DNA from: Catajapyx aquilonaris
Taxonomy: Eukaryota
NCBI GenBank assembly: GCA_000934665.2
Contig: KZ538860.1
Coordinates: 1-64,000, forward strand
DNA length: 64,000 nucleotides
Direction of reading: 5' to 3'
The notes beneath the pieces are model-generated. The model did no database searches, was not told the DNA's origin, and saw only the letters and a list, made by a program, of their open reading frames with translations. Both the position numbers and the translations under genes were made by a program. Below, one piece after another: positions 33,748 through 63,388 of this stretch (the first letter of the stretch is position 1; each line of letters opens with the position of its first letter).

Positions 33748-34724
33748 ATGCGGTTGGTGGTGAAGGTCAAGGAGGAAGTGCTGGAGGAGGAAGACAGCCG
33801 GGAAAGGACTGGCACGGAGACGTGGAACCTGCCTCTGAAGGAAGAGGAGGCCCGCCCTTTGAGCTCTGGCGGTGATGATTGGACACCTGCTGCAGAGGTT
33901 GGTGAGCAGGTCAAGGAGGAAGAGGAGGAGATGGTGGCCATCAAGGAAGAGCCTCAAGATGAGGACGATCCATTGGAAGTCGACTCAGGGAGTGCTGCTA
34001 CTGATGAGGTACTCTCTGCCGCCCCATGTTATTACCTTCATTGACCTTAAAATGGGGTTGCCTTCACACACGTTTGCCATCACTGTATGGCACGTTATTC
34101 CCATGTACTAGGTGGGAGCATTGACACAGCGTCAGTTACTGACCATCTGACATGAGAATGTGGTGCTAGCATGAAACATATCGTGGCATTTGTATCCAAG
34201 CACCTTCAGTTACTTGATTCCTCTTTCAGGTGGCAGGAGAAAATGCTGATGGAAATAATGCAGGGGAGCAGCTGGGGAGAAGGAGCATGGCGGGGAGCGA
34301 CGAGAGGCCATTTGCTTGCCAGCATTGCTACAAGAGGTTCAGGTGGAAACACCATTGGAACCAGCACATGACACGCCACGTGGGGCACACACCCTACGGC
34401 TGCGAGGAGTGCCCGAAGAAATTCAGTCGAGCGTGTGACTTGGGGAAACACATGTTGCTTCACGCGAGGGAAATGCCACACATTTGCCTCTGGTGTGAGA
34501 AAAGGTTCCTCACCCTGTTTAACTTGAAGAGACACACCAAGCTCCACACTCTCGATTGCAAAAAGTCTCGTGGAAATGAGGGTCGTCTTGCAGCTGACCT
34601 GCAATTATTGCACACCAGTGGGGGACCTATTGCGGAGGGGAAATTTGATTGCCAGTTGTGCCAAAAGAGGATGATTTCCGCATCCGATTTGAGGACTCAC
34701 ATGCGGACACACACAGCAGGGTAG
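33748..34724 (+). CDS. Cluster gene ZNF-A: acidic exon 33748-34008 + C2H2 exon 34230-34724 (4 fingers)
   Basis: VKEE..ETWNLPLKEEE..EMVAIKEE..DDPL; phase-0 GT-AG intron; CxxC..HxxxH fingers. Confidence 0.8.
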
Positions 34725-35150: not shown

Positions 35151-35280
35151 GGGTAGCAGCGACCCATACGGGAACTGCTACCCCCCCCTGCGACTCATGA
35201 ATAGCGGTTAAGGCCGTGAAACCAATGGGGACTGGAGAGCGGGGGTGGGAATGCGCCCGGACATTGATCCAAGATGGCGG
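35151..35280 (+). promoter_or_regulatory. Cluster promoter cassette (type copy). Other copies: ~33484-33508 (partial), 38816-38920, 42652-42779, 47172-47312, 49540-49645, 52005-52122, 53490-53611, 55996-56118, 58250-58360 (minus strand), 60425-60559
   Basis: Ordered motifs GTAGCAGCGA..(TCG)CTGCTAC, TAGCGCTTAAGGCC, GGTCGGAATGCRCCC, CAAGATGGCGG (YY1) upstream of each cluster gene. Confidence 0.85.
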
Positions 35281-35355
35281 AACGTCTTCCTCTTCTTCTT
35301 CTGCTCTCGAGAGAGTGGCTCGTCGTGGCCATTGCTCTGTAGGAATTAATTAATC

Positions 35356-35496: not shown

Positions 35497-38451
35497 ATGA
35501 TGTCTAGCTGGATGCTGCCCGTCAAGGAGGAGGAGGAGGAGGACATCACAACGGAGGAGACGTGGAGGCTGCAGCTGGAGGAGGAGGAGGAGGAGGAGGA
35601 GAAAAGCTTCCATGACGACTCGACACTTGCGGAGGACGTGCTTCGTGGGATCAAAGAGGAGGAGCCAGAGGAGGAGGAGGAGATGGTGGCCACTGTGTCG
35701 AGGGCAGATCAAGATGCGTGTCAAGGTGGGATCGCAAAGGAGGAGACATGGAGGTTGAAGGAGGAGGAGGAGGCCACTTCTTCCCTTGACCATGACCCGA
35801 CACTTGTGGAGGACACGGTTCGTCAGGTCAAAGAGGAGCCAGAGGAGGTGGAGGAGGAGATGGTGGCCACTGTGTCAAGCGGACGAGATGAAGATGCGGA
35901 TGATCCACTGGCAGTTGGAGGAGGAGGAGGAGGCGAGATAGGCCAGGTAGGTCAGCTGCTATACTGAAATGGGGGAATGCGTTTACTGTTGTATACCACA
36001 ATTTACTCCCACATTTTGACTCATAAAATGCACCACAGACAAGGGAGGTTTACAAGTGACATGATGGCTGTGATTCCACGAATTCAACTCATCATGGGTA
36101 GCGATGTAGCTCTCTCATGCATCTGCTTCAAGCCAAAAATATCCCACCTCTTAAAATCACAAGTGGATTTGCCCCGTCACATTTGTCTGAGGCACACCCA
36201 GTCTTTCGAAATGTCATTTACGTGCATTGTTAAAAATAAGCCACGTGTGCACACTTCCTGTCGCTCTTGCCTCCTCCCCCAGCAGGCAGTTGCATGCCAT
36301 GCCACTCTTATTCCTCTGCCCACACACACCCAGTGATCTTGGATGCCAAGAGCACCAGCACTCACTTTTAACTAATGAAAAAAGGAGATATTTTCTTCCT
36401 CGTGGTTCACCCCCTTGAGCCCCAGCTATACCTGCCATGCGCCATCGCCTAGTGTTCCACTTACGGGTACTCTGAAGATACGGGCAAGATATTTTACACA
36501 AAATAACAGCCATACTTATCCGATCAGGGAAAACACTAAGAATGTGTCTGGAACAATAATTTTCCTCGTCTAGAAGTCCCTAAATTAATTTCCAAAAATA
36601 TCGCTGTGAAACTCGCAAGTACTTCCGGCCAACTACTTGGCTGATTTAATTATGAAATACTGTATGTTAAAATACATGGAATAACAATGTATTGAGAATA
36701 GTGCCAGATGTGCAAGCCAAAAACTAGGCGCTCGCAGTATAGCTATACTCTGTGGCGATCCTTTTGGAAATTAATTTAGGGACTTCTAGACTGGTTCCAA
36801 ACACATACATGTATCATGTGGATAATTATTATAAAATTTATGCAAAATACTAGCATGTTTTAAAAAGTTACTATTGGAAAAAAAAAAAAAAATCAAACTG
36901 AAAAGGACATAGAGTCTTCTGATCATCATGCGAGGGTCCAATTATTAGAAAACAAGACTTTGGAAAAGGAGAACTGGAGGAGGGGTGACGGAAGGAGGGA
37001 GAGAGAGTTTTTGATTTGCGATGAGATGCAAACCTGCAGACATGTGATGAATGAGTGACCATTGGCCTCGCTTGTGGACATGCCATGGCAAACACCATTC
37101 ATCTGGACAGGAGGGGTTGCAATGATCTTGATTGTGCATGTGACTTGATAAAATATTAACTGTAATCCAGCAGTGATTCTCAGGCCATCACATTACATGA
37201 GGTGCAATATTCAGGCAAATTGGTGGGGACTGGCCGTTCCTTTTCAAGTTGATGGATAAAATTAATCTCTTTCAGGTGGAGGAAGGGGGTGCCAGGAAAG
37301 GGATGCAGGCAAGGGAGGGAGAGAAGAAACTCTCCCTCAAGGAAACATGTAGTGGCACGTCTCGTTTGAAGGAAGATGTGGGCATGCGCACAAGAAGGAA
37401 GAGGTTTGCTTGTGAAGTGTGCCAGAAAGAATTTTGTAGGGCATCTGATTTGAAAAGGCACACGCGGTATCACTCACTGTCAGAAGAGAAGCCGCTTCAT
37501 TGTGAAGTGTGCAAGATGAGGTTTTTATTTCCAGGTCGTTTGAAGCACCATATGCTCACTCACTCTGAGGAGAAGCCATTTGAATGTGAAGTGTGCAAGA
37601 AAAGGTTTTTACTCGAATGCGCTTTGAAAAGGCACATGAATGTCCACTCGGAAGAGAAGGCATTTGCCTGCAGTGTGTGCCAGAGAAGGTATGCATTGGC
37701 GTGCAGTTTGAAGCAGCACATGGTTATTCACTCTGAGGAGAAGCCATTTGATTGTGGAGTGTGCAAGAAGAGCTTCTCAAGTGCGTCTGGTTTGAAAACG
37801 CACATGGTTGTCCACACGGGGGAGAAACCCTTTCCTTGCAACTTGTGTCAGAAAAGGTTCGCGTTTATAGCTAATTTGAGGCTGCACATAGTTGCTCACG
37901 CGGGAGAGAAGCACGAATGTCAAGTGTGCAAGAAAATGTTTGCACACGCACACACTTTGAAGCTGCACATGGTTACCCACTCGGAAGAGAAGCCATTTGC
38001 TTGCACCTTGTGCCAGAAAAGGTTTCCCTTGGCATCTAAACTGAAGCGCCACATGGTTTCTCACTCCGAGGAGAAGCCGCACGACTGTCCAGTGTGCAAG
38101 AGAGGGTTTACATGTGCAGGTAATCTGAGGCAACACATGGTCACTCACACGGGTGAGAAGCAATTTGAATGTGAGGTGTGCCAGAAAAGGCTGGCATCGT
38201 CATCCACACTGAAGCTCCACATGATGGCTGTCCACACGGGAGAGCAGCCATTCGACTGCAAATTGTGCCAGAGAAGATTTTCACATCCAGCTACTTTGAG
38301 GAATCACATGACGACTCACACGGGAGCGAAGCCTTTTGCCTGTCCAGTGTGCGACAAAAGGTTTGGTCGGAATGCTGATTTGAAGAGACACGCGAGGAGG
38401 ACATCACATTACCCAGCAGCAGCGGAGAAGGTGGACCTTTCATTATTATAA
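35497..38451 (+). CDS. Cluster gene ZNF-B: acidic exon 35497-35946 (module internally duplicated) + C2H2 exon 37276-38451 (12 fingers)
   Basis: CAG|GTAGGT donor, TTTCAG|GTG acceptor, phase 0; H(T/S)(G/E)EKP linkers. Confidence 0.88.
36440..36800. mobile_element. Second, internally deleted copy of the foldback element, in the ZNF-B intron
   Basis: 29-bp inverted repeat TCTAGAAGTCCCTAAATTAATTTCCAAAA 36569-97 / 36762-90; CCGGCCAACT and TAATTATGAAAT blocks shared with 20335-21011. Confidence 0.7.
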
Positions 38452-39206: not shown

Positions 39207-40638
39207 ATGTCATTGATGCTGCCCGTCAAGAAGGAGGAAGAGGCGGACGTCAAGGAAGATGAGGCAGCAGAGGAGACGTGGAGGCTGCAGCTGAAGGAGG
39301 AGGAGGCCCCTTCCTGCTTCCATGATGAAGCAGCACTTGCGGAGGACGCAGCTGGTGAGATCAGCAGAGAGGAGCCAACCGAGGAGGAGGAGGAGATGGT
39401 GGCCACTGTGTCAAGCGGAGATGAAGATGCGGATGATCCACTGGCAGTTATTGGAGGAGGAGGGATTGCTGGTCAGGTAGGTCAGCACTACCCATATGGG
39501 GGACATATACCTTTACTGGACTGATAATTTATATCACATTTTGCATTTTGATCCCAAATTTTGACATTTTAAGTGGACCAGAGACAATGAGGCATGCTGG
39601 CTTTGCTTTCACATATGAAAATTGAAATCACAAAGTGTAGTGGCGGTGATACAGCTATAATCCATATCTCTCATTCAGGCCAAAAATGTGCCACCTCTTA
39701 AAATCCCCAACTGATGTACGTGCCCCATCGCATTTCTCTGAGGCACACTCAGCAGCTTTTATTTCAAAATGTAGCTTCGTGTGTTGACCGACACCAAGTT
39801 TAACATAATGTACGGGATCATCTGTTATTATTGTATGATGCGGGAACAACTTTTTTACACAGATGCCCACATGACATAAATGGGGTGCGTCGGCTCAGCA
39901 TCTTTAAACTAGTGAAATATTATAATAATAATATAATAATGTAATAATAATAATAATTCTCCGGTAGTGCCTGACCCTATATAGGGTATGCGGCACGGAC
40001 CTTTATTGTCACTTATGCATAGACCATATTTTTGAAACGCCCGGGCCCACGGGCAGGATGACAGGAGGGGATGTGCAAGGTGCAGTGGCCATTTTCAGTG
40101 AACTCCCCCGGGTGGTTTAGTCTGTTGGAGATACCACCCGAGACGAAGCCAGAGGTGACCCTGAACTCTGCACGAGATGAAGGGGGTGTCCCCGGGCTGG
40201 GATCGAACCCGGGACCTTAACATCCGTGGGCGCATACGTTACCGCAGCACCACTCCGCCTCCCATATTATTATTATCATCATCATATATTCACTGTCCAT
40301 CAGGAATCTGAATTATGCATAAACGTATATTCTCATAACCCTGTTCATGGATCGGGGACATCCTGTGTTGTAAGAAGATTCCTGCACTTGCTTACAACTG
40401 CGCGTATGCAATGATTTGCACAATTTCTACCCAAATATCTCATTTGGCTATTTTTAAAATGCAGCACTACAGTACAGGCATTATAAAGTTACAAAAAAAA
40501 TGCAGAAAAACCTCAAACTGAAAAATAAGTTGACGTTTTCTTCTGGTCATCATTAAAATGTGAATGCGAGAGTCCAATTATTAGACTCTGGCAAAGGAAA
40601 ACTTGAGGGGTGATGGAAGCGGAAGGGAATGAATAGGA

Positions 40639-45599: not shown

Positions 45600-46605
45600 C
45601 TAATTATATCTACTCAGCAAAGTCCTTCCGTGCTTCCTGGAAATGTGCCTCTTAAACGTTGAGGTGCATGAAAAATCCTCGTTGCATATTTCGCATATGT
45701 ATGGCCTCTCGCCAGTGTGGGTCCTGACGTGATCAGCCAGCTTGCTCTTCTGTATGAACGACTTGTCACACACTTGGCATTTGAATGGCCTCTCACCAGT
45801 GTGTGTCCTCGTGTGGACAACTAGCACATCCTTCCGTGTGAACCGCATGTCACACTCTCCACACTTGTATGGCCTCTCCCCCGTGTGGGTCCTCATATGA
45901 TCCACCAGCTTGTCCTTCCGCGTGAACCACTTATTGCCACACTCTTCGCATTTGTATGGCCTCTCGCCAGTGTGGGTCCTCGTGTGGTACACTAGCATGC
46001 CCTTCTGAGTGAATGACTTGCCGCACTCCTCACAATTGTGGGGCTTCTCACCAGTGTGAATTATACGGTGCCGGCTCAATGCTGAGTGGTAAGAGAAGGT
46101 TTTTCCACAATCCGGACAGTCCCAGCACTCATCCAATGGTTGAATTCCAATGTGAGTTTGTCTCTGTTTCGTACTCGCGTCACTGATGCTGCAAGCAGGG
46201 AATAATCTTCTGCAACAAATCATGCAACAAAATAATGGCCTAGACCCAGTAGTGCGTTCCAATCCAGGAAATTGCTTGTGGCAGTACATGCAAGTGAAAA
46301 GCTTGTGCGAAGGCGAACTCATCATTCCAGGCACCACTGCGCCAAGTGGATCTTCAACTCCTTCGGTGATGCTTGGCGCATCCACCAACATTTCTTCTTC
46401 GTCTTCAATCTTTATTGCCTCATCCACCTCTTCAGTCTTCACCTCCACTTGTCCAATGTTCAACTCATCTTCTTCTTCGTCACAATCTTGCTCTTCCACT
46501 GGTGCTGGTTCTTGCTTAATCATCGTAGTGATGGCCTCTTCTTCTACAATATCATCATCACGTTCCTCTTTCACCTCCTCCGTAGTGCTGGTATGAATTT
46601 GCCAC
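45600..46605 (-). CDS. Cluster-associated gene ZNF-D: acidic region and 6 canonical C2H2 fingers in a single exon; 5' exon uncertain (possibly 46917-46826)
   Basis: VKEE, IKQE, VKTE, IKIE, EDPL; HTGERPY linkers; CCCAG acceptor at 46606. Confidence 0.85.
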
Positions 46606-47473
46606 CTGGGAAATGCAAACAGACACATATCATACTAGAGCAGGGGCTTAATATAGAGCTTGTGCAACCTGCCATACCTGTTGTTGTTGTACTTATTAGC
46701 AGTAGTTGCAGTGTGGTCCCATCCACAATAATAAGCCGCCTCCATCACATTTGTACTCTATGTGGGAGTCAAACGCAGCAGCTCTCAAGCAGCACAATCA
46801 CTCGTCGTCTCTTTCTGCTGCTTACCACGCACGAATAACGAAAACCAACGAAAACATTCCAAACAACCCAAAATCTCCATACCAACCAGCAACGATGCTA
46901 ATACTACTGATGGACATGAACACAAGTATCCCGCCTGGTGACAATGTTGAAGGTGTATACATCAGGGAGAGAGGGCTTGATTAATCCCAACTGGTTTGAC
47001 CAGTCAGTCTATCGGCTGAGGAGGAATCTCTCTGGGACCCTCCTCGTCCCTTCTTCTTCTTCTTCTTCTTCTTCTTCTTCTTCTTCTTCTTCTGCCTCTA
47101 CAGCGCACTACAAACCCTACAGCTCGATCAGGTTCGATGGTGATAGCGATTAGCGTTCATCATCATCATCAGGGAGTAGTAGCAGCAGCAGCGAAGGACT
47201 GATCGCTGCTATTCCTCCCCTGACCACCAACGGATAGCGCTTAAGGCCTTGAAAGACACACTCGAAGGAGGTGTCGGTCGGAATGCGCCCTCCAATCGAT
47301 CCAAGATGGCGGACGTCTTGTTGTGGCCAAAAGAATAAAGAAGAAGAGTGTGGCCGCAAAGGAAGAAGAAGAAGAAGGGAGACTGGTGGTGGTGGTGGAT
47401 CCAACCATCCATCTCTCGGAGGAGGAGCCTGATCTCTTCTCCCTCTCCCTACCATTTTGTTCCCTCTTCTACC

Positions 47474-49374
47474 ATGTCATTGACGCTGCCCATCAATAAG
47501 AAGGAGGAAGAGAAGGAAGATGGTGGTGGTGAGATCACGACAGAGGAGACCTGGAGGATGGACTTGAAGAAGGAGGAGGAGGAGACCCCTTCTTCTTGCT
47601 TTGATGAGGAGGACCAGGCGACACTTATTGGGGAGGAGGATACGGTTCGTCATATCAAAGAGGAGCCACAGGAGGAGGAGGAGGAGGAGATGGTGGCCAC
47701 GAGCGGACGAGAGGAAGATGCGGATGATCCACTGGCAGTTGGAGGAGGAGGAGGGATTGCTGGTCAGGTGGGTCAGCTCAAATGGGGGAATGCGTTTACT
47801 GTTGTATGCCTCACTCCCATGAAATGCACCATCACAGACAAGGCAGGTGGAGTGACACGATGGCTATAATTCCACAAATTCAACTCATCAAGTGTAGTAT
47901 AGTCACAGGCTATCTCTCTCTCTCTCTCTTCTAGTCACTCCTGTCCTCCCCATCAGAGAGTTTTAAGAGCATGCTGTTCTGCCAGGTGCCCTTCCTCTGC
48001 CCAGCGCAGCTCCCTCGCACATGTCCCACTTACTGAGAAGAGGTGTATCTTATTTTTCAGGTGGAGGTTGGGGACGGATGTGAAAGGAAAAGGATAAGTC
48101 AGGGAGAGAAGGAAGTTGGTTCCATGGAAATGTGTAGCGGGACATCTCATTCGAAGGGACATGTGGAAGTACACAGCACAAGCAGGAAGTGGTTTGCTTG
48201 CAAAGTATGCCAAAGGGGGTTCAGACGGGCATGTGATTTGAAAGTACACTTGGCTACTCACACAGGAGAAAATAAGGCTTTTGCTTGTAATGTGTGTCAG
48301 AAAAGATTTGTGTTTCCATCCGTCTTGAAAAAGCACATGGTTACTCACACTGGGGAAAAGGCATTCCACTGCAAAATGTGCCAAAAAAGGTTCAGCAGGG
48401 CACATGCTTTAAAAAAACACGTGGAAATTCACACAGGGGAACAGGCTTTTGCTTGTGATGTGTGTCAAAAAAGATTTGCATTGGCATCTGTCTTGAAAAA
48501 GCACATGGTTACTCACACAGGGGAGAAGTCCTTAGCTTGCAATTTGTGTCAGAAAAAGTTCCGCAGGGCATCTGCCTTGAAAAGTCACATGAAGACTCAT
48601 ACAGGAGTGAAACCATTTGCTTGCGAATTGTGTCAGGAGAGGTTTGCATACGCCTATACTCTGAAGACCCACATGGTCGCCCACACGGGGGAGAAGGAAT
48701 TTGGTTGCCACGAGTGTCAAAAAAGGTTCGTATTTGAATCCGCTTTGAAGTCACACATGGCCACCCACTCGGGAGAGAAGCCACTTGTTTGTCGAGTGTG
48801 CAGCAAAAGGTTTGCTTTGGCGTCTGCTTTAAGAAAACACATGGTTACTCATACGGGAGATAAGTCGCACGCTTGCAATTTGTGTCAGAAGAGGTTCGTA
48901 TCGTCAACTTATTTAAAGCACCATATGGTTATTCACACAGGGGAGAAGCCCTTTGATTGCAACACGTGCCAGAAGAGCTTCGCATTTGCATATACTTTAA
49001 AAATGCACATGAAGACTCATACAGGCGAGAAGGAATTTGCCTGTGATGTGTGTCAAAAGAGGTTTAGTAAGGCATATAGTCTGAAGAAACACACGGTTAC
49101 TCACACAGGAGATAAGCCTTTTGATTGCAAATTGTGTCAGAGAAGGTTTCCATACGCATCTTCTTTGAAGAAACACATGGTGACGCACGCGAAAGTGAGA
49201 GCTTTTGATTGTGGAGCGTGCGACAAAAGGTTTGCGCAGATGTGGGAATTGAAGAAGCACATGGTTAGTACTCACGGTGGGGAGAGGAAATTCGTTTGCA
49301 ACTTGTGTGAGAAGAGTTATTATGTGCTGTCGTCTCTGAGGAGGCATATATTGACTCACACGGAAAACAATTAG
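47474..49374 (+). CDS. Cluster gene ZNF-E: acidic exon 47474-47767 + C2H2 exon 48061-49374 (14 fingers)
   Basis: MSLTLPINKKEE..EETWRMDLKKEE..DADDPLAV; phase-0 intron. Confidence 0.9.
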
Positions 49375-50042: not shown

Positions 50043-51505
50043 ATGTCATTGATGCTGACCATCAAGAAGGAGGAGGAGGAAGGAATTGATGGTGAGATCG
50101 TAAAGGAGGAGGAGATATGGAGTTTGCCCTTGAAGGCCCATGATGACTCGACACTTGTAGAGGATGCGATTGGTGAGATCAAAGAAGAACCAGCAGAGGA
50201 GGAGGAGATGGTGGCAACTGCGGCAGAAGCAGGTGATGCGGATGATCCACTGGCAGTTAGAGGAGGAGGAGGGATTGGTCAGGTAGGTCAGCACTACCCA
50301 TATTGGAACTTTAGTTTGCTGTACTGTTGCATGTCACAATTAACTCTCATTTTGACTAATGAAATAATGTACCACAGACAAGGCAAGTTTGCAAGTGGCA
50401 TGCCGGGTGTGACTTCACACATTCAAATTGAAATTATTAATTGCAGTTGTGCTGCAAAGAAAACAGTGCAAGAGAGAAATACTTGGCTGATCTGAGCAAA
50501 TGCCATCCAGCAAAAAAAGGCTGTATCTATGTGATTCCATAACCTGACCTCTAAAGTTAGCAGTAACTAGCAGTGGCACAAAAATTCGACCCTCGAGACT
50601 GTAAATCTTGGTAATTTAATGGGACATCCTCTCATTTGCAGGAAGATGTGGACATGCACACAAGAAGCAGGAAGCGGCTTGCTTGCAAATTGTGGCAGAA
50701 AGGATTCGGAAGAGCAACTGATTTGAAAAAGCATACTACATACTCACCAGAAAAGCCGTTTCATTGTGAAGTGTGCAAGAAAAGGTTTGCATTTGCATCT
50801 GCTTTGAACACACACGTTGTCACTCACACAGGAGCAAAACCTTTCGCTTGCAACTACTGCCAGAAAAGGTTTGCATTTGCATCTTCTTTGAAGACACACA
50901 TGGTTACTCACACAGGCGCAAAACCATACACCTGCAACTTGTGTCTGAAGAGTTTCGCATGTGCATCTAAACTGAAAGACCATACCGTTACTCACTCAGA
51001 AGAGAAAGCATTTGCGTGCAACTTGTGTCACAAGCGGTTTGCAATGGCATCGCAATTGCAGCGCCATATGGTTACTCACTCAGAAGAGAAGGTATTTGCG
51101 TGCAACTTGTGTCAGAAGAGCTTTGCATGTCCACATACTTTCAAAAGACACTTGAAGAATCACACAGCGGAGAAGTCATTTGCATGCAACTTGTGCCAAA
51201 AAAGGTTTGCATTTGCGTCTAATTTGAAGCAACACATGGTTACGCACTCGGAGGAGAAGCCATTTGCTTGCAACTTGTGCCAGAGACGGTTTGCGATGGC
51301 CGTTCAATTGAAGCGCCACATGGTCACTCACACGGAAGACAAGCCATTTGCTTGTCAAGTCTGCAAGAAACGCTTTGCATTTGCATATGCTTTGAAAAAT
51401 CACATGGTAACTCACACGGGAGACAAGTCATTCGCTTGCGATGTGTGCCAGAAAAGGTTTGCATGGCCGTCTAAATTGAAGCAGCACATGGTTATTCACA
51501 CCTGA
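50043..51505 (+). CDS. Cluster gene ZNF-F: acidic exon 50043-50282 + C2H2 exon 50642-51505 (9 intact fingers, 1 degenerate; stop in the linker)
   Basis: In-frame TTTGCAG|GAA acceptor; ends CAC ACC TGA GAG followed by finger remnants. Confidence 0.78.
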
Positions 51506-52232
51506 GAGATGCACATATGTTGGCAGATTTTGGCAGGAAATATTAACTCGCCTATCTTTGGTTATGCAAAAATGGTGACTCACACACGAGGGAAGGGAGG
51601 CAAAGTGTGCAAGGAAAGGTTTTCAGAGGAGTTTGACACGCGGAAAGCTGGAAACAAGCGAGATGGGATTTGCTGAGAAGATAGGTACACACTACTGCTT
51701 TTATCTCTTGGGTCCTTAGGAGGTCATGCAGGTGCTCTACTGATACGGTTAACCTGCCATCTGAGTAGGGGAAAAAAAATACACGTTGGAAATAATTTTA
51801 GTTGAAGGTGTGCAAGAGGACTTTTTGTTGATGGCTCATAGGGCCCATCCAGACAAGTTGTTAATTGCCGTTATGTCAATTTTTTGGTCATAAATAAAAT
51901 TATTGTGTAAATTATTTTGCTAGCCTTTAGCATGATTTATTTCCCTGTGTGTTGCAGTTATTTTTAATTCAAGAGAGAGAGAGAGAGAGAGACCATATCT
52001 GTGAGTAGCAGCGAGATGTTGGTAACTGCTACCTATGAGACAGATAGCGCTTAAGGCCTTGAAACATGTCCAGAGAGTGGCAGTGGTCGGAATGCACCCA
52101 TGACGTCATTCCAACATGGCGGACGTCTCCTTCCTGTGAAAAAGAGGAAAAGGAGACTCTCATCGGAGGAGGAGAGGCTTATTCTCCCTTCTCGTCGCTG
52201 CCATTTCATTAGTTCCATCTGCATAGGACCAT

Positions 52233-53400
52233 ATGTCGTTGATGCTGCCCATCAAGAAGGAGGTGGTGGAGGAGGAGGAAGGAGCAGGCGAAGATGATGG
52301 GATTGCAGCCGAGGAGATGATGTGCAGCTTCCCCTTGAAGGAGGAGGCCTGGAGCATGCCCTTGGAGGAAGAGGAGACCCCTTCAAGCTTCTTCCACGGT
52401 GAGGACTCTGTGGAGGACACCGTCGGTGAGATTGAGCCGGAGGAGGAGGAGATGGTGGCTGCCACGGAGGAGGTTGACCAGGATGCGGATGATCCACTGG
52501 CAGATGGGGAGGTAGGTCATCAGCAGCTGGTGGGGCATTCGTTTGCTGGACTCTTACATTCTACTCGCAAATTATGGCTAATCAAGTGCACCACAGACAA
52601 TGGGAGGTGCTGGCCTGTGATTTCACAAATTCAAATCATCATGTGCAGCTATATCTCTCCCATGCATCTGCTTCAAGCCATATAAAATCTGCCACTTCTT
52701 AAAAACCCCAAACTCATTTGCCCCATCGCGTTTTTCTGAGGCACCAGATCTCAAGAAGGATCATCCGGTAGTGTAGCATATCAGAACTGCAAAAACAAGA
52801 GATGTAAGGGCGGGTTCAGACTTTTCAGAAAGTTTGGTGTTTTCCCCTCAATGAGGTTGGCTATCATAATGTTCATGTGATGCGTATTTCTTTCAGGTCA
52901 AGCCTGGGGTTGGAGGAGCACGGAAAGGGAGAAGAGCAGGAGAGAAGAGACTTTGTCGCAAGAAAGCGTTTAGTGATGGGACATCTCCCTGGAAGGAAGA
53001 TGCGGCGGAGGACCCGACGAGAAGGAAGTGGTTTGATTGCAAAGTGTGTCAAAAAAGGTTTAGTAAGTCGTCTAATTTGAAAGCGCACATGGTTACTCAC
53101 ATCTTCGGAGAGAATCCATTTGATTGCAACACGTGTCAGAAGAGGTTCGCATTGGCGTCTCTCTTGGAAAATCACATGAAGACTCATGCGGGAGAGAGGA
53201 AGGAATTCGCGTGCACACTGTGCCAGAGAGAGTACAGCAGGGCCAGGGATCTGAAGAAGCACATGCTGACTCACACAGGAGAGAACCCTTTCGGTTGCAA
53301 GTGGTGCCAGAAGAGGTTCGCACTGGCGTCCTCCCTGGAGAACCACACCAGGACTCACGCAGGGGATAATCGTGTCACCACCACAGCAAGTCAGAAATAA
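52233..53400 (+). CDS. Cluster gene ZNF-G: acidic exon 52233-52511 + C2H2 exon 52897-53400 (4 fingers)
   Basis: Phase-0 splice gives a continuous frame into ORF 53044-53400. Confidence 0.85.
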
Positions 53401-53715
53401 ATTCCAGGATTGATTCTGGCAAGCGATATTTCGTCATTGCAAAAGTTGGTCCTAATATTATTTTGCAATAGTTTTATATGGAAATGGGAGTAGCAGCGAT
53501 GTAAAGTCGCTGCTATTCCCCCCTCAGCGGGTAGCGCTTAATGGCTTGGCACCCTGAGGAGCGACGGTCGGAATGCGCCCCACTTCGGAGGTTATTGATC
53601 CAAGATGGCGGATCGTTCTTTTTCCCTTCCTTCCTTCCTTCCCCTAGGACTGGTCGTGGCTCTCGGAGGAGGAGGAGGAGGCTGACCTCTCCCTGGGCGT
53701 CGCTTCGTCCTCACC

Positions 53716-55765
53716 ATGGCTTTGATGCTGCCCATCGTCAAGGGGGAAGAAGAAGAGGTGGAGGAGCAGGGAGATGGGATCATCGCAACCACGGAGGAGG
53801 AGACTGCCCCTTCAAGCCGCTTATTCCACTACCATGGATCGACAGAGCAGGGCCCTCAGATCAAAGAGGAGGAGGAGATGGTGTCAACCGCATCAGATGA
53901 ACACACATGTTTTGAAGGTGGGATCGTCAAGGAGGAGATTTGGAGTTTGCCCTTGAAGGAGCCCACTTCCAGCTTCCGTCGTGATGGCTTATTGACGCTT
54001 GAGGTCAAAGAGGAGCCGGCAGAGGAGGAGGAGATGGTGGCCACGGCGTCAAGCGGAGACGAAGATGCGGATGATCCACTGGCAGTTGGAGGCTGTCAGG
54101 TAGGTCGGCACTACTGGGACCTACGTTGACTGGATTGTTCAATGTTTTACACCGATATTCACTATTATTAAGTTTGGCAGTTGGGTTATTGGCACCAGCA
54201 TGACATTGAGGCATTCACAGGGAAAGGGGCGTGACTCACATCACCGAGAAATGTGCTGCGCAAAGAAAGAAAAAAGTAGCCTGCATTTAAATGTTGCACT
54301 CATAAATAAAACTGCTTTTACTTTTCAGTGACGAATCCAACAATAAGAAATGTTTTGTGTGATAAAAATAATATGCTTCACGGTGTTCTCAAAAAAATAA
54401 ATATTTTCTTTGCCTATAGCCCCCATAAAAAATTCAATTAGTGACTTACGCCCTATCCCATGTGAATGCCTCAATTACCATCACTGGTGCGCCTGAATGC
54501 ACCCAATGCAATTGTTAGGTTGACATAAGTTAGCTTCGTGCCCTAAATAGGGACCTGCCCTCCTTTAAATCCTTGCAGTTAAAATCCTTCACCTGGACAG
54601 GAGGGGGTTGCAATGATCTTGTTTCTGCGTGTGACTTGATAAAATAATGACTGTGTGGTTAATCTTGTGGTGTCCAGCTGCAGTGATTCTCAGACCATCA
54701 CATTACACGAAGCACACAACAAATTGGTGGGGATGAGCACGGGCTGTTCTTTGATTGTTGATGGACTGGATTGATCTCTTTCAGGTGGAGGCTGGGGATG
54801 ACGGGAAAGGGATGCAGACAAGCCAAGGAGAGAAGTCTTTTCATTGTGAAATGTGCAAGAAAAGGCTTCCAAGTGCATCTGCTCTGAAGGCGCACATGGT
54901 TATTCACACGGGAGAGAAGCCCTTTGCTTGCAACCTGTGCCAGAAAAGGTTTGGATTTGCATGTGCTTTGAAGAGACACATACTTACCCACGCAGGAGTT
55001 AAGCCATTCCGTTGTGAAATGTGCCAGAAAAGGTTTGGATGCGATTCCGCTTTAAAGACGCACATGATTACTCACACGGGAGTGAAACCATTTGCTTGCG
55101 ACTATTGCCAGAAAGGATTTGCATTTGCGTCAACTTTGAGGGCACACATGGTCACTCACACAGAAGAGAAGCCGTTTGTTTGCGACGTCTGCCAGAAAAG
55201 GTTTGCATTGGAATCTTACCTGAAGGCGCACATGGTTACTCACACGGGAGAGAAGCCCTTTGCCTGCAGCGTGTGCCAGAGAAGGTTCGCATTGGCATCT
55301 TACCTGACGCGTCACATGGTCGTTCACTCTGAAGAGAAGCCACTTGATTGTGAAGTGTGCCAGGAAACCTTTTCGTCTGCGTACACTTTGAAAGAACACA
55401 TGGACACCCACGCATTGAAACCATTCGCTTGCCCCGTCTGTCAGAAAAGGTTTAGTAGCGCGTCTAATATGAAGCAGCACATGGCCACCCACTCGGAATG
55501 GAAGGAATTTGCTTGCAACCTGTGCCAGAAGAGGTACGCATTGGCATCTGACCTGAAGCGCCACATGAAGACTCACTCGGAGAAGCCATTTGATTGCCCA
55601 GTGTGCAAGAGAAGCTTCGCGTTTGAACATGCCTTGAAGAAGCACATGGAGACCCACACAGGGGAGAAGGAGTTTGCCTGCAGCTTGTGCCAGAAGAGGT
55701 ACACCCTGCTGTCGTCCTTGAGGAGGCACACAGCCACTCACACAGGAAATGCTAGCAATAGCTGA
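53716..55765 (+). CDS. Cluster gene ZNF-H: acidic exon 53716-54099 + C2H2 exon 54785-55765 (11 fingers)
   Basis: MALMLPIVK..EIWSLPLKE..DADDPLAV; phase-0 intron. Confidence 0.9.
54205..54475. mobile_element. MITE in the ZNF-H intron
   Basis: ATTGAGGCATTCACA..GGGCGT..TCAC / GTGA..ACGCCC..TGTGAATGCCTCAAT, ~33-bp imperfect inverted repeats around an AT-rich core. Confidence 0.75.
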
Positions 55766-56222
55766 ATGGAAACTTGCTCTTGATGACCTGCCGCCTAGTC
55801 ACCAACCGGTACTTTATTCAGTGGATATTATTATTGGGAGTAGTTGTTCCCTGTTCCGGACAGGCCGTTGTATTTGGGAGTCATGTATTGTGCGTATACA
55901 TGTGTAAATGCAGTATGTGGTTATGTACAAGACGTTTGTGAATTTTATGAATGAATAAATGAAATTATTATTATTTGAACGAAAGAGCGTCTTAAATAGC
56001 CGCTACTCATCAGGATCTGGATAGCGCATAAGCACATCCCTTTTCAAAGCGTTGATCGGAATGCACCCGACTCCAAAAAAACAAAAAAAAAAATGAAGAA
56101 TGTTTTCCAAGATGGCGGACGATCCTTTCCGTTAGCGCGTCACTCTTTCTCTTCATTTCGACCCGTTTCTTCGCCCACCTTCGCGTCTAGAGGGAGAATC
56201 GCCTTCCATACACTTGCACGGT

Positions 56223-57529
56223 ATGTCACTGATTGAAAGGATCAAGGAGGAGGAAGACTATGGCGATGAAGAAGAAGTCGCGATGGAAGAGCTGTGGAAG
56301 GAGCCGTTGATAGAAGAAGCCCCTTCTTGCTCTGATCATGAAGCCACGACACCCATCAAAGGGGAACCAGCTGAGGAGGAGGAGGAGGAGGAGGAGATGG
56401 AATACAATGTTACGGCCAAGGTGACTGAAGATGACCCATTGGCAGTTGGTTCTGCAGGCAACGGAGAGGTACGTTAGCGTCAGGAATTGCGAAACAACTT
56501 CCCTGGACTCAGTCTTCCGTAAAGACTAGCTTGTGTTTGAAAAATTAGATGGAAAAAAAAGGGATTCTAATGGTGCAATAAATGTACTGAAATTGTAAAT
56601 CCAGATGGTCAGCCAGGAAAAGTCTGTAGAAAGCCAATCGTGTGTGACTTTCTCTTCAGAGCAAGACTGGTGGTGCACCAGCAGGAAGATCTTCCATGTC
56701 GTTACGCCGTGGTAGCATCAATAGAAAACCACAGAGGAAGAGAAGCAAAAAGTTGTCAGTGAAGCAGCAAATGGCGAGAAACAAAGAGACACATCCTGTG
56801 AAGCCTGGCTGTACCTGCAAAAACAAGTGCGCAGACAAAATAACGGAGGAGAGGAGAGAGGCCATCAACAGTGAGTTCTGGGCCTTGGACCACTGCGGAC
56901 GGCAGGTGTTCATCCACGGTTCCATCACCAAGATTCCCAAGAAGCAAAGCACCACGGTTGGATTCAGCTGTCGCTCCTACAGTTTCTTTTACCATATGAG
57001 AGACCAGTACAACAATTCCTTTCGAGTGTGCAAGGCTTTTTATCTCACAACACTTGGCTTCGCCCAGAATAATGACACTGTTGTGCGGAACGTGATGCGT
57101 GTGTGCGACGGTCCGTTGTTTTTCCCTCAGCAGGATGGGAGGGGAAGGGCTCCTTCCCCATACAAGATCGATACCACCTCCATTGAAGAGCACATCAAGT
57201 CTTACGTTCCTGGTCTATCCCAGAGGAGACGGGACAACGGGACAAATTCATCAGGTGACGTGACATTTTCTGCAATGGTGAAAGACTACAATTCCAAGCA
57301 CAAGGAACGGCCCGTCTCCTACAGCATATACTGCAGGGTAGCCAAGACCATGAACATTTCAATTACATCTGGCGGAAAAATTAGTGCTCCTAATAAACGA
57401 GTACCAAATTGCCAATATTTACAGCCTTCTCTTAATCCTGTGCAATTATCACTAAGGCTCCCGTTGGAATGCACCCAACATGGACCACAAACGGCTTCTC
57501 CTCTGCATGAGTTGCCAGGTGCCTTTTGA
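56223..57529 (+). CDS. Cluster gene I: acidic exon 56223-56468 spliced to a non-C2H2, Cys-rich, probably transposase-derived exon 56660-57529
   Basis: MSLIERIKEE..ELWKEPL..EDDPLAV; phase-0 splice in frame; CTCKNKC..EERREAINSEFWAL..RVCKAFYLTTLG..DGRG..IEEHIKSY. Confidence 0.78.
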
Positions 57530-58073
57530 AATGAGATGCCCAGGCAAACCGTTTCTGACAAAAAGTGCAAATGAATGGCTGATACGACCTATGAATCTCC
57601 GTGTGTTTTTTTCAATTTAGATTCCAGTGCAAATGTTTTCTGGCAAAATTCACATGTCAGTGGCTTTTCTTTTGTATGAGTCAAAACGTGCGATTTCATA
57701 GTATCTGGCCTTGCAAACCTTTTGTGACACGCACTGCAAGCAAATGGCTTCTTCTCCTCTGCATGCCTGGCCATGTGCATTTTCAAAGAGTATCTCTGCG
57801 CAAACCTTTTCTGGCACAATTGACAAGAAAATGCTGCCTTCACTCCCGTGTGGGTCACCCAAGTGTTTTTTTCAAAGTAGACGCCAAAGCAAACTCTCTC
57901 TGACACACGCTACATGCTAATGGTTTTTCTCCCGTGTGAGTCATCAAATGCGTCTTCAAACCAAAGGGCCGACTAAACTTCTTATTGCACTGATGACAAG
58001 TCTTCTCTCTTTCGACTGTCCTGATATTTGGCTCCTTCCTCCTTTCAATGATTCCATCCGCTTCTTGGTCAAC
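57485..58073 (-). pseudogene. Frameshifted C2H2 array (ZNF-J pseudogene) that keeps the promoter cassette but lacks the acidic exon
   Basis: Fingers split over several frames (CHQC..HLMTH, CQLC..HMARH, CSAC..HVLTH, QKRFAWASHFKRHLATH) with shifts at A-runs near 57870 and 57610. Confidence 0.8.
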
Positions 58074-58496
58074 CTGCAAGATTAATTTATCAGTACAGTG
58101 ATACAATTTTTAGGACTGAAAAGCCTGTTTCGTTCCATTTGCTCTCCATTACACAATGTAGTGTCAATAATAATAATAATAAGATCAATAATAAGAGAGA
58201 GAGAGAGAGATGAAAGTACACTTCAAGAGGTGGTTACAAGCAATATCGGGCGGCCATCTTGGATTGCATTTTTTTTTGCGGGTGCGTTCCGATGGCCACC
58301 TTTCGCTGGGGGGGAATGGCGGACGGGCTTATGCGCTATTAATGGGGGAACAGCAGCGATTGCACGACGATCCCAATAATACCGATCGAATCGATCGTAT
58401 CAGAAGAAGAAGAAGCCCGTGTCCGTCCGTCTCTCTCTCTCTCTCTCTCTCCTTCCTTCTGGTGGTCCATTGTCCACCAGAGCAGCTACAGGCAGG

Positions 58497-59997
58497 ATGG
58501 CCCCTCCAAGAACTAAGAAGGAGGCTGCGAAACTGCGCGCGCGGGAGAGGATGCGGCAGGCGGCGGAGTGGAAAGGGAGGCTTCTGGCGGAGGTGCAGGC
58601 CCGGCCGGCCATCTGGGACAAGGGGGGCGGAGGACGAGATCGGGAGGCGGTCGAGGCCATGTGGGACCAAGTGGTCGAGGCCATGGGCTCCATGGACAGT
58701 AGGTGTCTTCTTCCCTCTGTCTAAAGCACTTGAAACACTTACAATGAGACTAATAATTGCCCAATTCTGTCTAAATACAATGTCAGAGGCCGAATGCAAA
58801 ACCGCATGGAGGAACCTAGTGGACATCCACAGGAAAGTCCACCAGCAAGTGAGCAGAGAGAAGAAGAGTGGGCAGGGATACGTGGCTCCCCCAAAGTGGC
58901 AGTATTATGATGCCATGTCGTTCCTGCGAGGTCGCGCAGAAAACAGGGTGTGAGTATATCACTATATACCGTTATGTCATGGGTGCCCAATGCGCAATTG
59001 TTCGCAATAGCATTGCAAATAGTTTATCGAGTCAATTTTCCGCAGTTGTGATACATCAATATTTCGCGAGCTTGGAAAAATTTCTAAACTCTGGAATTCA
59101 TTCCTCCAATAATGGAGTCGTGATAATTTTGTGGCTCAGTTGCATTGCAATTAATATAAGTGTTCCTCATGCCTCATTCAAGGGAAGAACTCGTGACTAT
59201 AGCCAACATCGACTGGGGACATACTGAAGAACCAGACATGTACGCCGACGACTCCCTGACAGCCGATGACTCCCTGACAGCCGACGACCCCCTGGCAGCC
59301 GACGACCCCCTGGCAGCCGACGATCCTTTGTCACCCCACATACATGACATTGCATCCCGTTCTTCCACTCCCACTGCATCCCTTTCTTCCACACCCACCA
59401 TACCGCTTTCCCCAAGCGCAACACAGACTCCCCACAGCATTGAACCTCAAAAGAAGAAGAAGAAGAGGATGGAGGAAATTGCCAAGACCTCTGCATCACA
59501 AAAGTCGGGCCTGCCAACGTCTGCATCGACAACTTCTCTACTGCCGATGTCTACGCCAGTGGATGACGCGATGATTAGAACATTGCAGGATATTCGTGCG
59601 TATGTAAAATTAAAAGCTTCGGTATCCCCCAATTACGTAAAGTAACATACGAACTGGGACGTCATTACAAGCCATTATTTTGTCCAATTGCCAGTCGTGC
59701 TGCAATCTTGCATCCAAAACAGATGGCAGTCCATTGTAATTTTTTCTGATGCTGTGAAAGTCATTGTGAATGTGACAATGCTAAAAGAAGCCATAATCTG
59801 TTTTAACCTATACTGAGTCATCACAACAATTAATGTTCCCTTTCAGGCGACTAAGTGAGGAGCCGTCCGACTTCAGCAGACTGTCACAGTACCTCGAGGG
59901 CCATTACACTAAATGGTCTGCCAGCAGCAAGGAGGCATTCGAGCATGCCGTTGTCAGATTAGCCTGGGACATCCACAAGGCTGACGGCGGAAAATAA
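58497..59997 (+). CDS. MADF (Adf-1-like) transcription factor with a C-terminal BESS-like helix; exons approx 58497-58698, 58787-58949, 59183-59599, 59847-59997
   Basis: LLAEVQARPAIWD..AMWDQV..ECKTAWRNLVDIHRK..KWQYYDAMSFL; C-terminus DFSRLSQYLEGHYTKWSASSKEAFEHAVVRLAWDI. Confidence 0.85.
59244..59333 (+). repeat. Five in-frame 18-bp tandem units encoding ADDSLT x2, ADDPLA x2, ADDPLS
   Basis: gccgacgactccctgaca / gccgatgactccctgaca / gccgacgaccccctggca x2 / gccgacgatcctttgtca. Confidence 0.95.
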
Positions 59998-60666
59998 AAT
60001 GTCCAGATTCAAAAAACTGACTCGCAAGTATTTCATTATTTACAATATGCAGTTGAATCTCCTTAATCTCAACTCTACGTAAATAGTAACAAAATGCCAA
60101 TAAGGTCAAGTCCCACACGAAGGAATATGGTGGATGGCTGTCAATTATAATTATGGAAGTTTCATTTTGTCCTGTGATGCACATGGCCCCACGTGACCAC
60201 AACCTGTTCAAGTATAACGACAATTAATTGTTTGCAGCAGGAAACTTATTCCAGGAATGTCCAGTCAATGTCCTGAAGGTCAGTGTTAAAGCGCAGAGTA
60301 TTCTAATGCTCGTGGTTACTTCCAACGCTGAATTTGTCGGTATGAGTTGTTTGCACTAATTAATAAAAAGAGAAGCACAAGTTAATTGAGCCAATTGAGC
60401 TGGAGGTGAGCTTCCCCCTGACAAGTAGCAGTTACCAAGAAGAAGCCGTTACTGCTCCTGCCAATAGCGCTTAAGGCCCTCCCTCCCCCTCCTTTCAACC
60501 GCCTTGTAGTGTGGGCGATACGAACGCACCCCACACACGTCACCAAGCCAAGATGGCCGACGTGTGGAACATCATCATTATTTTATAGTTAGCTGTGCAC
60601 GGCAAGTCTCTCGGGATTAATCGAGGCTGTGGTTCATACTGGCAGTGGGTGTTTCCCCTAAGGACA

Positions 60667-63388
60667 ATGTCCTCTTCTTCTGAACTGGTGGTCAAGGAGG
60701 AGGTGGAGGGGGAAGAACAGGCCGTCACTTCGGAGGCATGGAAGGTGGCTGTCAAGCAGGAGGCCACCGCGTTCTACTCTGATGATTGCCAAGACGCGTC
60801 GTCGTCGACAGCTGCAGGGGACGGCGGCGGGATTAAAGAGGAGCCGGACGAGGAGGAGGAGGAAGAGATGGTGGCTGCAGTGGCAGCAGGAGGGGATGCC
60901 GAAGAAGCGGTCGACCCTTTATCCACGGTTGGACGGACTGGCCAGGTATGAAGGATGATGAGTTGAATGGCCTGATCAACATGCACTGCTCCCGTCAACA
61001 ACAAACATCCCCAATTCTCAAGTTCCCACGGAGATGCCCTCAGGCAACAAGAACTAGCATGCCCGCAGGAGCTACTCCATTCGCATTGAGTACCGGCCAC
61101 ACAATCCAATGCCTTTCTTTTTTGCCCATATCCCATGGCCAGAAATCTCACGTATTCATTGACCCAGGCGTGATTGCTCAGCTCACATGAGTTTGTGTCA
61201 TAATATATTATGCTGCAGTTTGTCCAGGAAAAGGCTACATGGGATTTCAGGGAATTTTGAAGTACTGCAGCGTTGGCAGATGCATATTGAACCCAACATA
61301 GGACACATTCAAATCAAAATATTCCACATAGCATCCATTCATTTTTTTTTAGAGCAAACATAGGGGACAAGGTGGGGGTGGAGCAGGCAGAAATTTAGGG
61401 GAAAAAAACCATGTGGCCATGCATTATTTTCCTGAGCTGACTCCATCTGCACTCATCATTTTACACATCCCATAGGAATCAATTCTGTGCACATATTAAC
61501 TCGACCAATTGAGGCATGTGATTGGCCACCTCAGATGAGGCAATGAAAATTTCGCCAATTATTACTACATAATGGATCATAGGGCCAGTTTTCAGCATGG
61601 AGGCTATTTAATTCTTGCATATCCACTACAACACTAGTACACTACAGGGAAATGCCAGGTTGCTTGCTGGTACAGTAGTAGCAATCTAAATATTTATGAC
61701 CTCCTACCCTTACAGTTCCTTCAGATCTTTTCTCGTGATGCATATGTGCAAGCAGAAAAAAAATTATCTCTCACCCACCATGTAATTTTAGACTTTTTCT
61801 CATCGAAGACAAGTCTGGCATAACTGCCCGTCCGTCCATCTGCGGACAGGTTATCAGGGCCTAAACCGCTGGAGATAGCGACAAATTGTTGTCGGATTCA
61901 GATTTGGCAGACCCTGAATAGGTATCAGGGTCAACTTCTGGTTTTCCGGGTACACTCGATCCCCCAAGATCAACTCTATACTGTATAGGTGGGGTGTCCT
62001 GAGGATCCTTGGCAACATGGAATAGATTGCTCTCAGCCTAATTTCAGGAGTATTATCAGTACTACAACACTGCCAAATGAGAAAAAGTTCACTGGAATCA
62101 TGCTCGCGGCTATGGCAAGATGGATTTTACGATCCTGAATACAAGACTAACGTACATGCTTGACTTTACAATGTTGCAAGATATTTCTTGGTTGTTATGA
62201 AAGAATACTGAATCATGCAGCCATGGTAAACCACCTACTCCCCTCATCTCCAGGTTCGACATGTTAATGGGGACAGTTAATTCAGAGCTACCTCGTCATG
62301 CTCTAAACAGTTGTGATAATCTTGCGCTTTCCCACACTTTCTGTCCTGCTATCCCTCGTTCCCCAACTGCAAAATATTGCTCGATACCACCCATTTAAAC
62401 CATTTCCATCTTACAGGTGGCCCAAGAAAAACATGTTGCGAGCATGGAGGAAGACATTCAGACGGAAAGTCAAATGCCGAGAAGTGAGGGAGAAAATCAG
62501 GGATACAGGAAGACTTGCTCGGGAGAGGAGCCACTCGCTTGTCCATTGTGCCAAGAGAAGTTTAGTCTAGGACATGAATTTAGAAGGCACATGTTAAGTC
62601 ACCCCAAGGAGAAGCCTTTCATTTGCCAGATATGCCAAGAGGGTTTCTGTCTGGAAGCCCAGCTGTTGGGCCACTTGTCAAGTCACCCTCCTAACGAGAC
62701 GCCTTTTGTTTGCCAGATATGCCAAAAGGGTTTCTATGGAGAAGCCCAGCTCTCAGCCCACACGAGAGCTCATTCAATAGAAAAGCAATATGTTTGTCAA
62801 GTGTGCCAGAAGAAATTCCCTTGGCCATCTGACTTGAAAAAACACTTGGTAACGCACACGGAAGAGAAGCCTTTTGATTGCAAAGTGTGTCAAAAAAAGT
62901 TTAGTAGGGCATCTGATCTGAAGAAACACCTAGTGATTCACACAGAAGATAAGCCTTTTGATTGCCAAGTGTGCCAAAAATCTTTTTATAGGGCGTCTGA
63001 TTTGAAGAAGCACTTAGTGTCTCACACAGGAGAGACCCCATATTTCTGTCACGTATGCCAGAAAAATTTCAGGAGTTCATCTAGTTTGGCCAACCACCTA
63101 AAAATCCACACGGGGGAGAAGCCGTACTGTTGTGACACCTGCCAGAAAAGATTTAGCCAGTCCAATGATTTGAAAGTACACAAGAGGATTCACACTGGGG
63201 AAAAACCATTCGCATGCACAGTGTGCCCGATGAAATTCCGCCAGGCACGTCATTTGAAAGTCCACATGTGGACTCACACCGGAGAGAGACCAATTGCATG
63301 CACGCTATGCCAGAAGGCATTTCGCCAGGAATGTCATTTGAGAGACCACATGAAGAGGGCTCACACTGAAGAGAAGACACGTGCCTGA
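60667..63388 (+). CDS. Cluster gene ZNF-K: acidic exon 60667-60945 + C2H2 exon 62417-63388 (10 fingers)
   Basis: LVVKEE..EAWKVAVKQE..IKEEP..EMVA..VDPL; phase-0 intron. Confidence 0.9.

Follow-up and report, generated by a model that had tools for sequence, protein, structure and literature searches.

We analyzed a 64,000-nucleotide stretch of Catajapyx aquilonaris DNA (assembly GCA_000934665.2, contig KZ538860.1, positions 1 to 64,000 of the forward strand), referred to below as the window, which carries a tandem cluster of C2H2 zinc-finger (ZNF) genes and a gene of the MADF domain family. The acidic first exons of the cluster genes, here called heads, share a D-P-L core that is a constrained short peptide in a predicted disordered, effector-type exon. 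The MADF gene contains an 18-bp tandem array, an expressed coding minisatellite, in which the same residues recur in the form ADDPLA. The available comparisons support an origin of this array independent of the heads, and we tentatively propose that heads and array present the same docking motif to a common nuclear partner.

The cluster spans 33.7 to 63.4 kb of the window and consists of nine plus-strand genes, each opening with an acidic head exon, and of ZNF-D, a minus-strand gene contained in a single open reading frame (ORF) (Table 1). The layout of the head-exon genes was read from ORFs, splice donors and reading frames. Counting of the pattern C-x2-C-x12-H-x3-4-H gave 4-14 C2H2 units per second-exon ORF behind heads A-G and I, and five units in ZNF-D, in the same ORF as its EDPL. 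A preliminary description, made from the letters of the window alone, had listed ten motifs (DEDDPLEV, five times DADDPLAV, DADDPLAD, TEDDPLAV, AVDPLST and, in ZNF-D, VEDPLG), and all of them are present. It also had the first exons end with D/E-D-P-L. D-P-L is indeed found in 10 out of 10 heads, and DDPL in eight of them, but it does not stand at the very end: in the nine spliced heads it lies 4-12 residues upstream of the splice donor and is followed by a Gly-rich stretch.

Alignment of the ten heads revealed nine invariant columns, namely the start Met, one Glu, E-E-E-M and D-P-L; the Trp adjoining the invariant Glu is kept in the nine spliced heads. The offset from EEEM to DPL is 15-18 residues in every head. 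The D, P and L columns each hold one residue type, encoded by 2, 2 and 4 codon types, respectively, whereas neighbouring columns hold 3-7 residue types. Since the residues are fixed while the codons vary, the constraint acts on the peptide and not on the DNA. In heads B and G the W...KEEP...EEEM module is duplicated internally, and the inner (first) copy has EEEM and no DPL, where ADQDACQGG and DEHTCFEGG stand instead. A stretch of 21 nt around the motif is identical in five heads; this identity is due to recent duplication and adds nothing to the argument, the informative comparisons being those among heads A, H, I and ZNF-D. The heads are one family by descent, so that the presence of the motif in every first exon of the cluster does not amount to repeated independent evidence.

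Asp plus Glu make up 27-37% of the heads, and their conserved hydrophobic residues (W, M, V, L) are embedded in acidic runs. Matches to the psi-K-x-[DE] pattern, by pattern only, occur 2-4 times per head in 10 out of 10 heads. Modelling of head C by AlphaFold2 with its nine paralogues gave a mean predicted local distance difference test score (pLDDT) of 62.8 and a predicted template modelling score of 0.16, with no helix of four or more residues and no strand; the alignment was shallow, and the result fits disorder without proving it. As is typical of short linear motifs, the conserved core of the heads is short, predicted to be disordered and more conserved than its flanks. For the MADF array two of these properties were assessed, length and predicted disorder, and both were found. 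As far as sequence and modelling go, the DPL core of the heads is thus a constrained short peptide in a disordered effector-type exon.

Head H provides a case in which the motif is found apart from zinc fingers. Contigs were taken from X1, the only public run covering the stretch (the kind of run is not on record). One of them splices head H with GT..AG borders at 56466>56658 (cut +2; 56466/56468 to 56658/56660), joining it to a 289-residue ORF without zinc fingers and with a CTCKNKC cysteine cluster (gene 56223-57526, plus strand). The TEDDPLAV exon, listed with the cluster first exons in the preliminary description, is therefore one that leads into a non-ZNF ORF. The 289-residue ORF gave no Pfam family and no PDB relative at E<=1. 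Its nearest clusters in the ESM Atlas are unnamed eukaryotic ones, found most often in arthropods; the best score was 0.93, and the recognition value narrowly missed the threshold. The ORF is probably a captured transposon-type body. The DPL motif is kept in head H despite this body, which indicates that the head is a portable module.

A four-exon model of the MADF gene (58497-59997) was derived from reading frames and splice signals and was then checked against the contigs. The X1 contigs join 58698>58787, 58949>59183 and 59599>59847, all with GT..AG borders, and the spliced coding sequence (CDS) comprises 933 nt, or 310 codons, with one stop, which is terminal. The 18-bp array is spanned by one 687-letter contig (59183-59435) with 0 differing letters and 0 gaps. 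The sample behind X1 is possibly that of the assembly itself, and the contigs therefore show expression and splicing, not independence. Exon 1 matched the Pfam family PF10545 (MADF_DNA_bdg) with E 8.6e-4 and 20.1 bits, below the 22-bit cutoff, over profile positions 1-37; exon 2 matched it with E 7.7e-6 and 26.6 bits, above that cutoff, over positions 44-84. These two exons are joined in the contigs, and the gene belongs to the MADF domain proteins. It had been labelled MADF-BESS; the first half of this label stands, while the second, which denotes a C-terminal motif of ~40 residues with two helices, found no support in Pfam, where exon 3, its last 36 residues and exon 4 gave no family even at E<=10, the exons having been searched singly so that a junction-spanning motif would escape. 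Exon 3, a linker of low complexity modelled by AlphaFold2 as a single sequence, had a pLDDT of 57 and a sole helix at exon 3 residues 128-134. Net charge in residues 121-180 of the protein, around the array, is -8 to -11 per 30 residues.

Tandem Repeats Finder located the array at 59244-59323, with period 18, 4.4 copies, 93% matches and a score of 125. Read in frame to 59333 it forms five units, which occupy residues 143-172 of 310, and this reading frame is the real one, as follows from the contig joints and the spliced CDS. The five ADD(P/S)L repeats reported earlier are thus confirmed, both as in-frame units and in a spliced contig. Unit 1 reads GCC GAC GAC TCC CTG ACA (ADDSLT), and unit 2 differs from it by a single synonymous base, GAT in codon 2. 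Units 3 and 4 are identical, GCC GAC GAC CCC CTG GCA (ADDPLA). Unit 5 reads GCC GAC GAT CCT TTG TCA (ADDPLS) and differs from units 3 and 4 by four bases, of which three are synonymous C/T changes in the Asp, Pro and Leu codons and the fourth replaces Ala with Ser. DDPL is therefore present in three units and DDSL in two. Overall, the array is an expressed coding minisatellite. Two further coding repeats lie in the same exon on the plus strand: 24 bp repeated twice at 59351-59398 (ASRSSTPT/ASLSSTPT), and (AAG)5 at 59451-59466, which encodes a Lys run.

A six-frame scan of the window (127,996 codons) found 11 occurrences of DDPL, eight in the heads and three in the MADF gene, with none elsewhere; composition predicts 0.60. 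Because these 11 belong to one paralogous family and one tandem array, they represent only two independent events. ADDPLA is the sole 6-mer common to the MADF protein and the ten heads. We shuffled the MADF protein 20000 times with the array collapsed to one unit: DDPL appeared in 0.37% of the shuffles, ADDPL in 0.035% and ADDPLA in 0 of 20000, while any 6-mer in common with the heads was found in 1.6% and any 5-mer in 22%. In this one gene the ADDPLA match is unlikely by chance.

Comparison of the MADF protein with the heads by hhalign aligned 8 columns only, with a probability of 1.7% and E 0.03. When ADDPLA was held fixed and its flanks were shuffled 2000 times, the real flanks scored 4.5 bits against the head profile. 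The shuffles averaged 6.6 bits, and the real score was reached or exceeded in 85% of them. Four of the six motif codons differ between heads and MADF at the third position, and the codon contrast drawn in the preliminary description, GATGATCCACTG versus GACGACCCCCTG, is correct. Given no homology in the flanks, the MADF copies are best regarded as being of independent origin. An amplification independent of the heads, as had been suggested, is thus supported by these comparisons.

The explanation that we put forward, tentatively and short of calling it probable, is a real docking motif shared by heads and MADF protein. The D-P-L core, usually D-A-D-D-P-L-A-V, would be a selectively kept short linear peptide in an acidic disordered head exon inherited by the cluster genes. 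The head signature would be bipartite, EEEM and DPL being separated by 11-14 residues, and would immediately precede a glycine linker and the DNA-binding part. The linker following the MADF domain, unrelated to the heads, would first have held one ADDPL unit, and replication slippage of the 18-bp unit may then have produced the five in-frame copies (three with DDPL, two with DDSL) carried in the spliced message. The acidic-Pro-Leu peptide would dock a nuclear co-regulator, which both kinds of DNA-binding protein would deliver to chromatin by way of a single copy in the heads and of up to three in MADF. On this view, the identity of six residues, ADDPLA, would reflect convergence on one binding specificity. 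Any gain in avidity from the multiple MADF copies, as suggested in the preliminary description, would likewise be hypothetical.

Counting for this proposal in the heads are the invariance of D, P and L, the nearly constant distance from EEEM and the retention of the motif in head H. On the MADF side, DDPL has been kept through three synonymous changes in unit 5, the oldest-looking unit, and to this are added the rarity of ADDPLA in shuffles and the modelling of both regions without stable structure. The location of the MADF gene counts in the same direction: it sits inside the cluster, on the same strand as the heads, and has the element ATGGCGGA 181 bp upstream of its ATG, as five heads have it 111-223 bp upstream of their start codons. 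By inspection, DDPLAVG and DDPLAAD did not fit PxVxL/LxVxL (HP1 chromoshadow) or PxDLS (CtBP) in any register.

Precedents exist in Drosophila. The proteins bound by CP190 include many of the C2H2 type as well as CP60, which belongs to the MADF-BESS proteins (PMC10573801). The CP190-interacting region of CP60 (residues 104-189) directly follows its MADF domain, and the array described here likewise follows MADF, a likeness by position (PMC10573801); unlike in CP60, BESS was undetected by Pfam in the exons of our protein. Another MADF-BESS protein, Clump/CG30403, binds HP1a via a short motif in a disordered linker (bioRxiv preprint, PMC13404825). Clump uses this short motif of its variable linker to recruit a chromatin effector, and the candidate motif described here has a corresponding place in another protein of the MADF family. 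The Clump motif is LxIxL, similar to PxVxL, and is not tandem, whereas DDPLA(V/A) does not fit it and is tandem in MADF (PMC13404825). In more general terms, disordered regions give rise to short motifs de novo, and interfaces in which several motifs co-operate have a raised avidity and are able to titrate the protein that binds the motif (Davey et al. 2015, PMC4654906). This is a general principle, and the portion available of that article has nothing on DDPL, MADF or these genes.

A number of observations weigh against a docking motif common to heads and MADF. Recognition of the match was post hoc, many windows having been scanned, and a literature search for DDPL as a motif gave no related paper. 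The MADF protein has no EEEM block (EEPDMY stands upstream of the array) and no psi-K-x-E site, compared with 2-4 such sites per head. Each head carries exactly one DPL, at a fixed offset from EEEM, and none is found in the inner modules of heads B and G, which gives no hint of an advantage in additional copies. In the MADF array, two units out of five have Ser where the heads have an invariant Pro. The identity of units 3 and 4 and the one-base difference between units 1 and 2 are as in a young, possibly neutral minisatellite, and the linker is repeat-prone, its exon bearing also the 24-bp and (AAG)5 repeats; these two further repeats keep neutral slippage a live alternative. Finally, the argument from synonymous changes in unit 5 concerns four substitutions only, with p estimated by hand at ~0.04-0.1.

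An alternative is coincidence followed by slippage. DPL would then matter in the heads, and the MADF array would be a neutral, young, in-frame minisatellite in a repeat-prone linker, with a unit that resembles the head motif by accident and with no partner in common. We regard this as a serious possibility, on a par with the shared docking motif, that falls somewhat below an even chance. The identity of units 3 and 4 and the one-base difference between units 1 and 2 speak for it, as do the three different tandem repeats in exon 3, the change from Pro to Ser, the lack of EEEM and psi-K-x-E in MADF and the absence of similarity to the heads in the flanks. The shuffling results are divided: a 6-mer of any kind in common with the heads arose in 1.6% of the shuffles and a 5-mer in 22%, and the match was picked post hoc from many windows, but the exact motif was rare. 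Conservation of DDPL in unit 5 and the embedding of MADF in the cluster, together with the cluster's promoter element, are also left unaccounted for by coincidence.

It is unlikely that the heads and the MADF linker act simply as generic acidic effectors, in which charge together with scattered Leu, Val, Met and Trp would form an activation-domain-like surface or a DNA-mimicking autoinhibitor with no reader specific to DDPL. The acidity of the heads and the negative charge of MADF residues 121-180 are as such an explanation would have them, as are the conserved W, M, V and L inside the acidic runs of the heads and the modelling of both regions as unstructured. Tandem acidic-hydrophobic peptides, such as a VP16 peptide in four copies, are strong activators in synthetic form. 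However, composition leaves unexplained the invariance of Pro and Leu in all ten heads, the spacing between EEEM and DPL and the loss of DPL in the inner modules.

A variant of the docking proposal, which we consider quite improbable, is that MADF is a multivalent mimic of the head docking peptide, whose 3-5 DDPL-like copies would compete for or titrate the co-regulator that the heads recruit by their single DPL, either as an anti-silencing decoy of a transposon lineage or as a host-built buffer of the cluster's repressor activity.

Common descent, in which part of a head exon would have been copied into MADF by unequal exchange or exon shuffling and then amplified, is weakly contradicted and in our opinion very improbable. 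The two kinds of gene are neighbours in the same orientation, and EEPDMY is faintly like the KEEP...EEEM of the heads. Against this, the array stands after the MADF domain and not in leader position, and the short hhalign match, the low score of the real flanks and the third-position codon differences described above do not favour copying. A head exon as the source of the array was rejected on the hhalign and flank-shuffle results. A role at the nucleotide level, in which GAT/GAC-rich words close to exon borders would serve as exonic splicing enhancers and the peptide would be a by-product, could draw on the distances (12-36 nt from the donor in heads, 61-150 nt from the acceptor in MADF exon 3) and on the 21 nt identical in five heads, but is barely credible given that the diverged heads change bases and not D, P or L, that Leu uses four codons, and that ZNF-D keeps EDPL with no exon border nearby.

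Returning to a shared docking motif, its interest lies in the fact that what is known of large, fast-evolving zinc-finger clusters comes mainly from KRAB in tetrapods. The closest described architecture, compared by layout and description, is that of FiNZ-ZNF in cyprinid fish. To judge from the accessible parts of the two articles on that family (PMC10547256, PMC11603059), FiNZ-ZNF and KRAB-ZNF genes (tetrapods) resemble the genes described here in forming tandem C2H2 clusters in which the finger-array exon is preceded by a separate exon for a short, lineage-specific N-terminal module rich in Glu; this module is presumed to recruit an effector. Wells et al. 2023 state that the recruiting ability of the FiNZ domain and its partner are unknown (PMC10547256); a possible interaction with TRIM33 was seen by co-immunoprecipitation in 2024 (PMC11603059). 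FiNZ and KRAB are described with secondary structure, in contrast to the heads, which are modelled as unstructured, and the EEEM...DPL signature is not described for FiNZ in those parts of PMC10547256 and PMC11603059. The acidic head, with an invariant EEEM...DPL among variable residues, gives a very small and testable point of entry to recruitment. Should the MADF array indeed bind the partner of the heads, it would serve as a naturally multivalent bait with which to find that partner, and two unrelated DNA-binding families would have converged on one docking peptide. If the match is a coincidence, an ordinary lineage-specific head motif and an ordinary coding minisatellite remain.

Table 1. 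Positions of the head exons, the MADF gene and the upstream elements in the window.
Feature	Positions	Strand	Remarks
Head exon A	33748..34008	+	DDPL 33964-33975, context DEDDPLEV
Head exon B	35497..35946	+	DDPL 35899-35910, DADDPLAV; internal duplicated module
Head exon C	39207..39476	+	DDPL 39432-39443, DADDPLAV
ZNF-D, N-terminal part	46299..46523	-	EDPL 46344-46355, VEDPLG; EEEM-x-DPL pattern, then five C2H2 fingers, one ORF
Head exon D2	47474..47767	+	DDPL 47723-47734, DADDPLAV
Head exon E	50043..50282	+	DDPL 50241-50252, DADDPLAV
Head exon F	52233..52511	+	DDPL 52488-52499, DADDPLAD
Head exon G	53716..54099	+	DDPL 54070-54081, DADDPLAV; internal duplicated module
Head exon H	56223..56468	+	DDPL 56430-56441, TEDDPLAV; spliced to non-ZNF ORF
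MADF upstream element ATGGCGGA	58316-58323	+	
MADF upstream element ATAGCGCATAAGC	58327-58339	-	
MADF exon 1	58497..58698	+	ATG at 58497; N-terminal half of MADF domain; Pfam and GT..AG joint
MADF exon 2	58787..58949	+	C-terminal half of MADF domain; Pfam and joints
MADF exon 3	59183..59599	+	Acidic, Ser/Thr/Pro-rich linker, predicted disordered; carries 18-bp array; joints
In-frame 18-bp tandem array	59244..59333	+	MADF exon 3; ADDSLT, ADDSLT, ADDPLA, ADDPLA, ADDPLS
MADF exon 4	59847..59997	+	C-terminal 49 residues and stop; BESS-like position, no Pfam match at E<=10; joint 59599>59847
Head exon I	60667..60945	+	VDPL 60910-60921, AVDPLST
Cassette sites	35201-35281, 47234-47313, 52044-52123, 53531-53612, 56021-56119, 60464-60476		Also 58316-58339

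Searches for relatives of the heads and of the MADF protein were made separately. Three of the ten heads were compared with Pfam and gave no family at E<=0.1; the heads as KRAB domains were accordingly rejected, neither KRAB nor any other Pfam family being found in the three tested. Head C used as a query for homologous longer proteins gave no matches, and the same was true of MADF exons 2 and 3. In a metagenome scan, an alignment of the heads (A2, narrowed) and MADF exon 2 each gave pattern matches, and tblastn found no relative. MADF exon 4 (59848-59994), compared with 1.84 billion protein representatives, gave a single match, P0001, with E 5.9e-8 and 26% identity over five stretches. This is a 300-residue repetitive protein of ~5 repeats of a unit resembling exon 4 and was rejected as a MADF orthologue.

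The element ATGGCGGA has 9 matches in the window compared with 2.05 expected, and 0 out of 100 shuffles reached 9. It forms part of a cassette in which ATAGCGCTTAAGG stands ~72-91 bp before (CCAAG)ATGGCGGA. Upstream of MADF a near-copy of ATAGCGCTTAAGG lies inverted directly beside ATGGCGGA. With up to 3 mismatches allowed, ATAGCGCTTAAGG was not enriched in the window (12 matches compared with 10.4 expected), and only exact and near-exact cassette copies are meaningful.

Back to back with the MADF promoter, minus-strand zinc-finger reading frames occupy 57432-58109. They are distributed over three frames and shift frame at least twice, and no acidic head is visible upstream; this is probably a decayed member of the cluster. 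A single-ORF gene with F-box and LRR matches (Pfam F-box-like, LRR_At5g56370) lies in the middle of the cluster at 43729-44859, plus strand; in it ATGGCGGA forms the start codon context, and another copy is found ~950 bp upstream. Outside the cluster, an uninterrupted plus-strand ORF of 1563 codons extends over 24238-28926 in GC-rich sequence, together with several overlapping long ORFs in other frames, as is usual at high GC content. An ORF of the SIX homeobox type and ORFs for ribosomal proteins were recognised by eye, and we take the window to be animal DNA. Two N runs (assembly gaps) are located at 3643-3810 and 9228-9236, the first of them flanked by (TC)n/(GA)n simple repeats.

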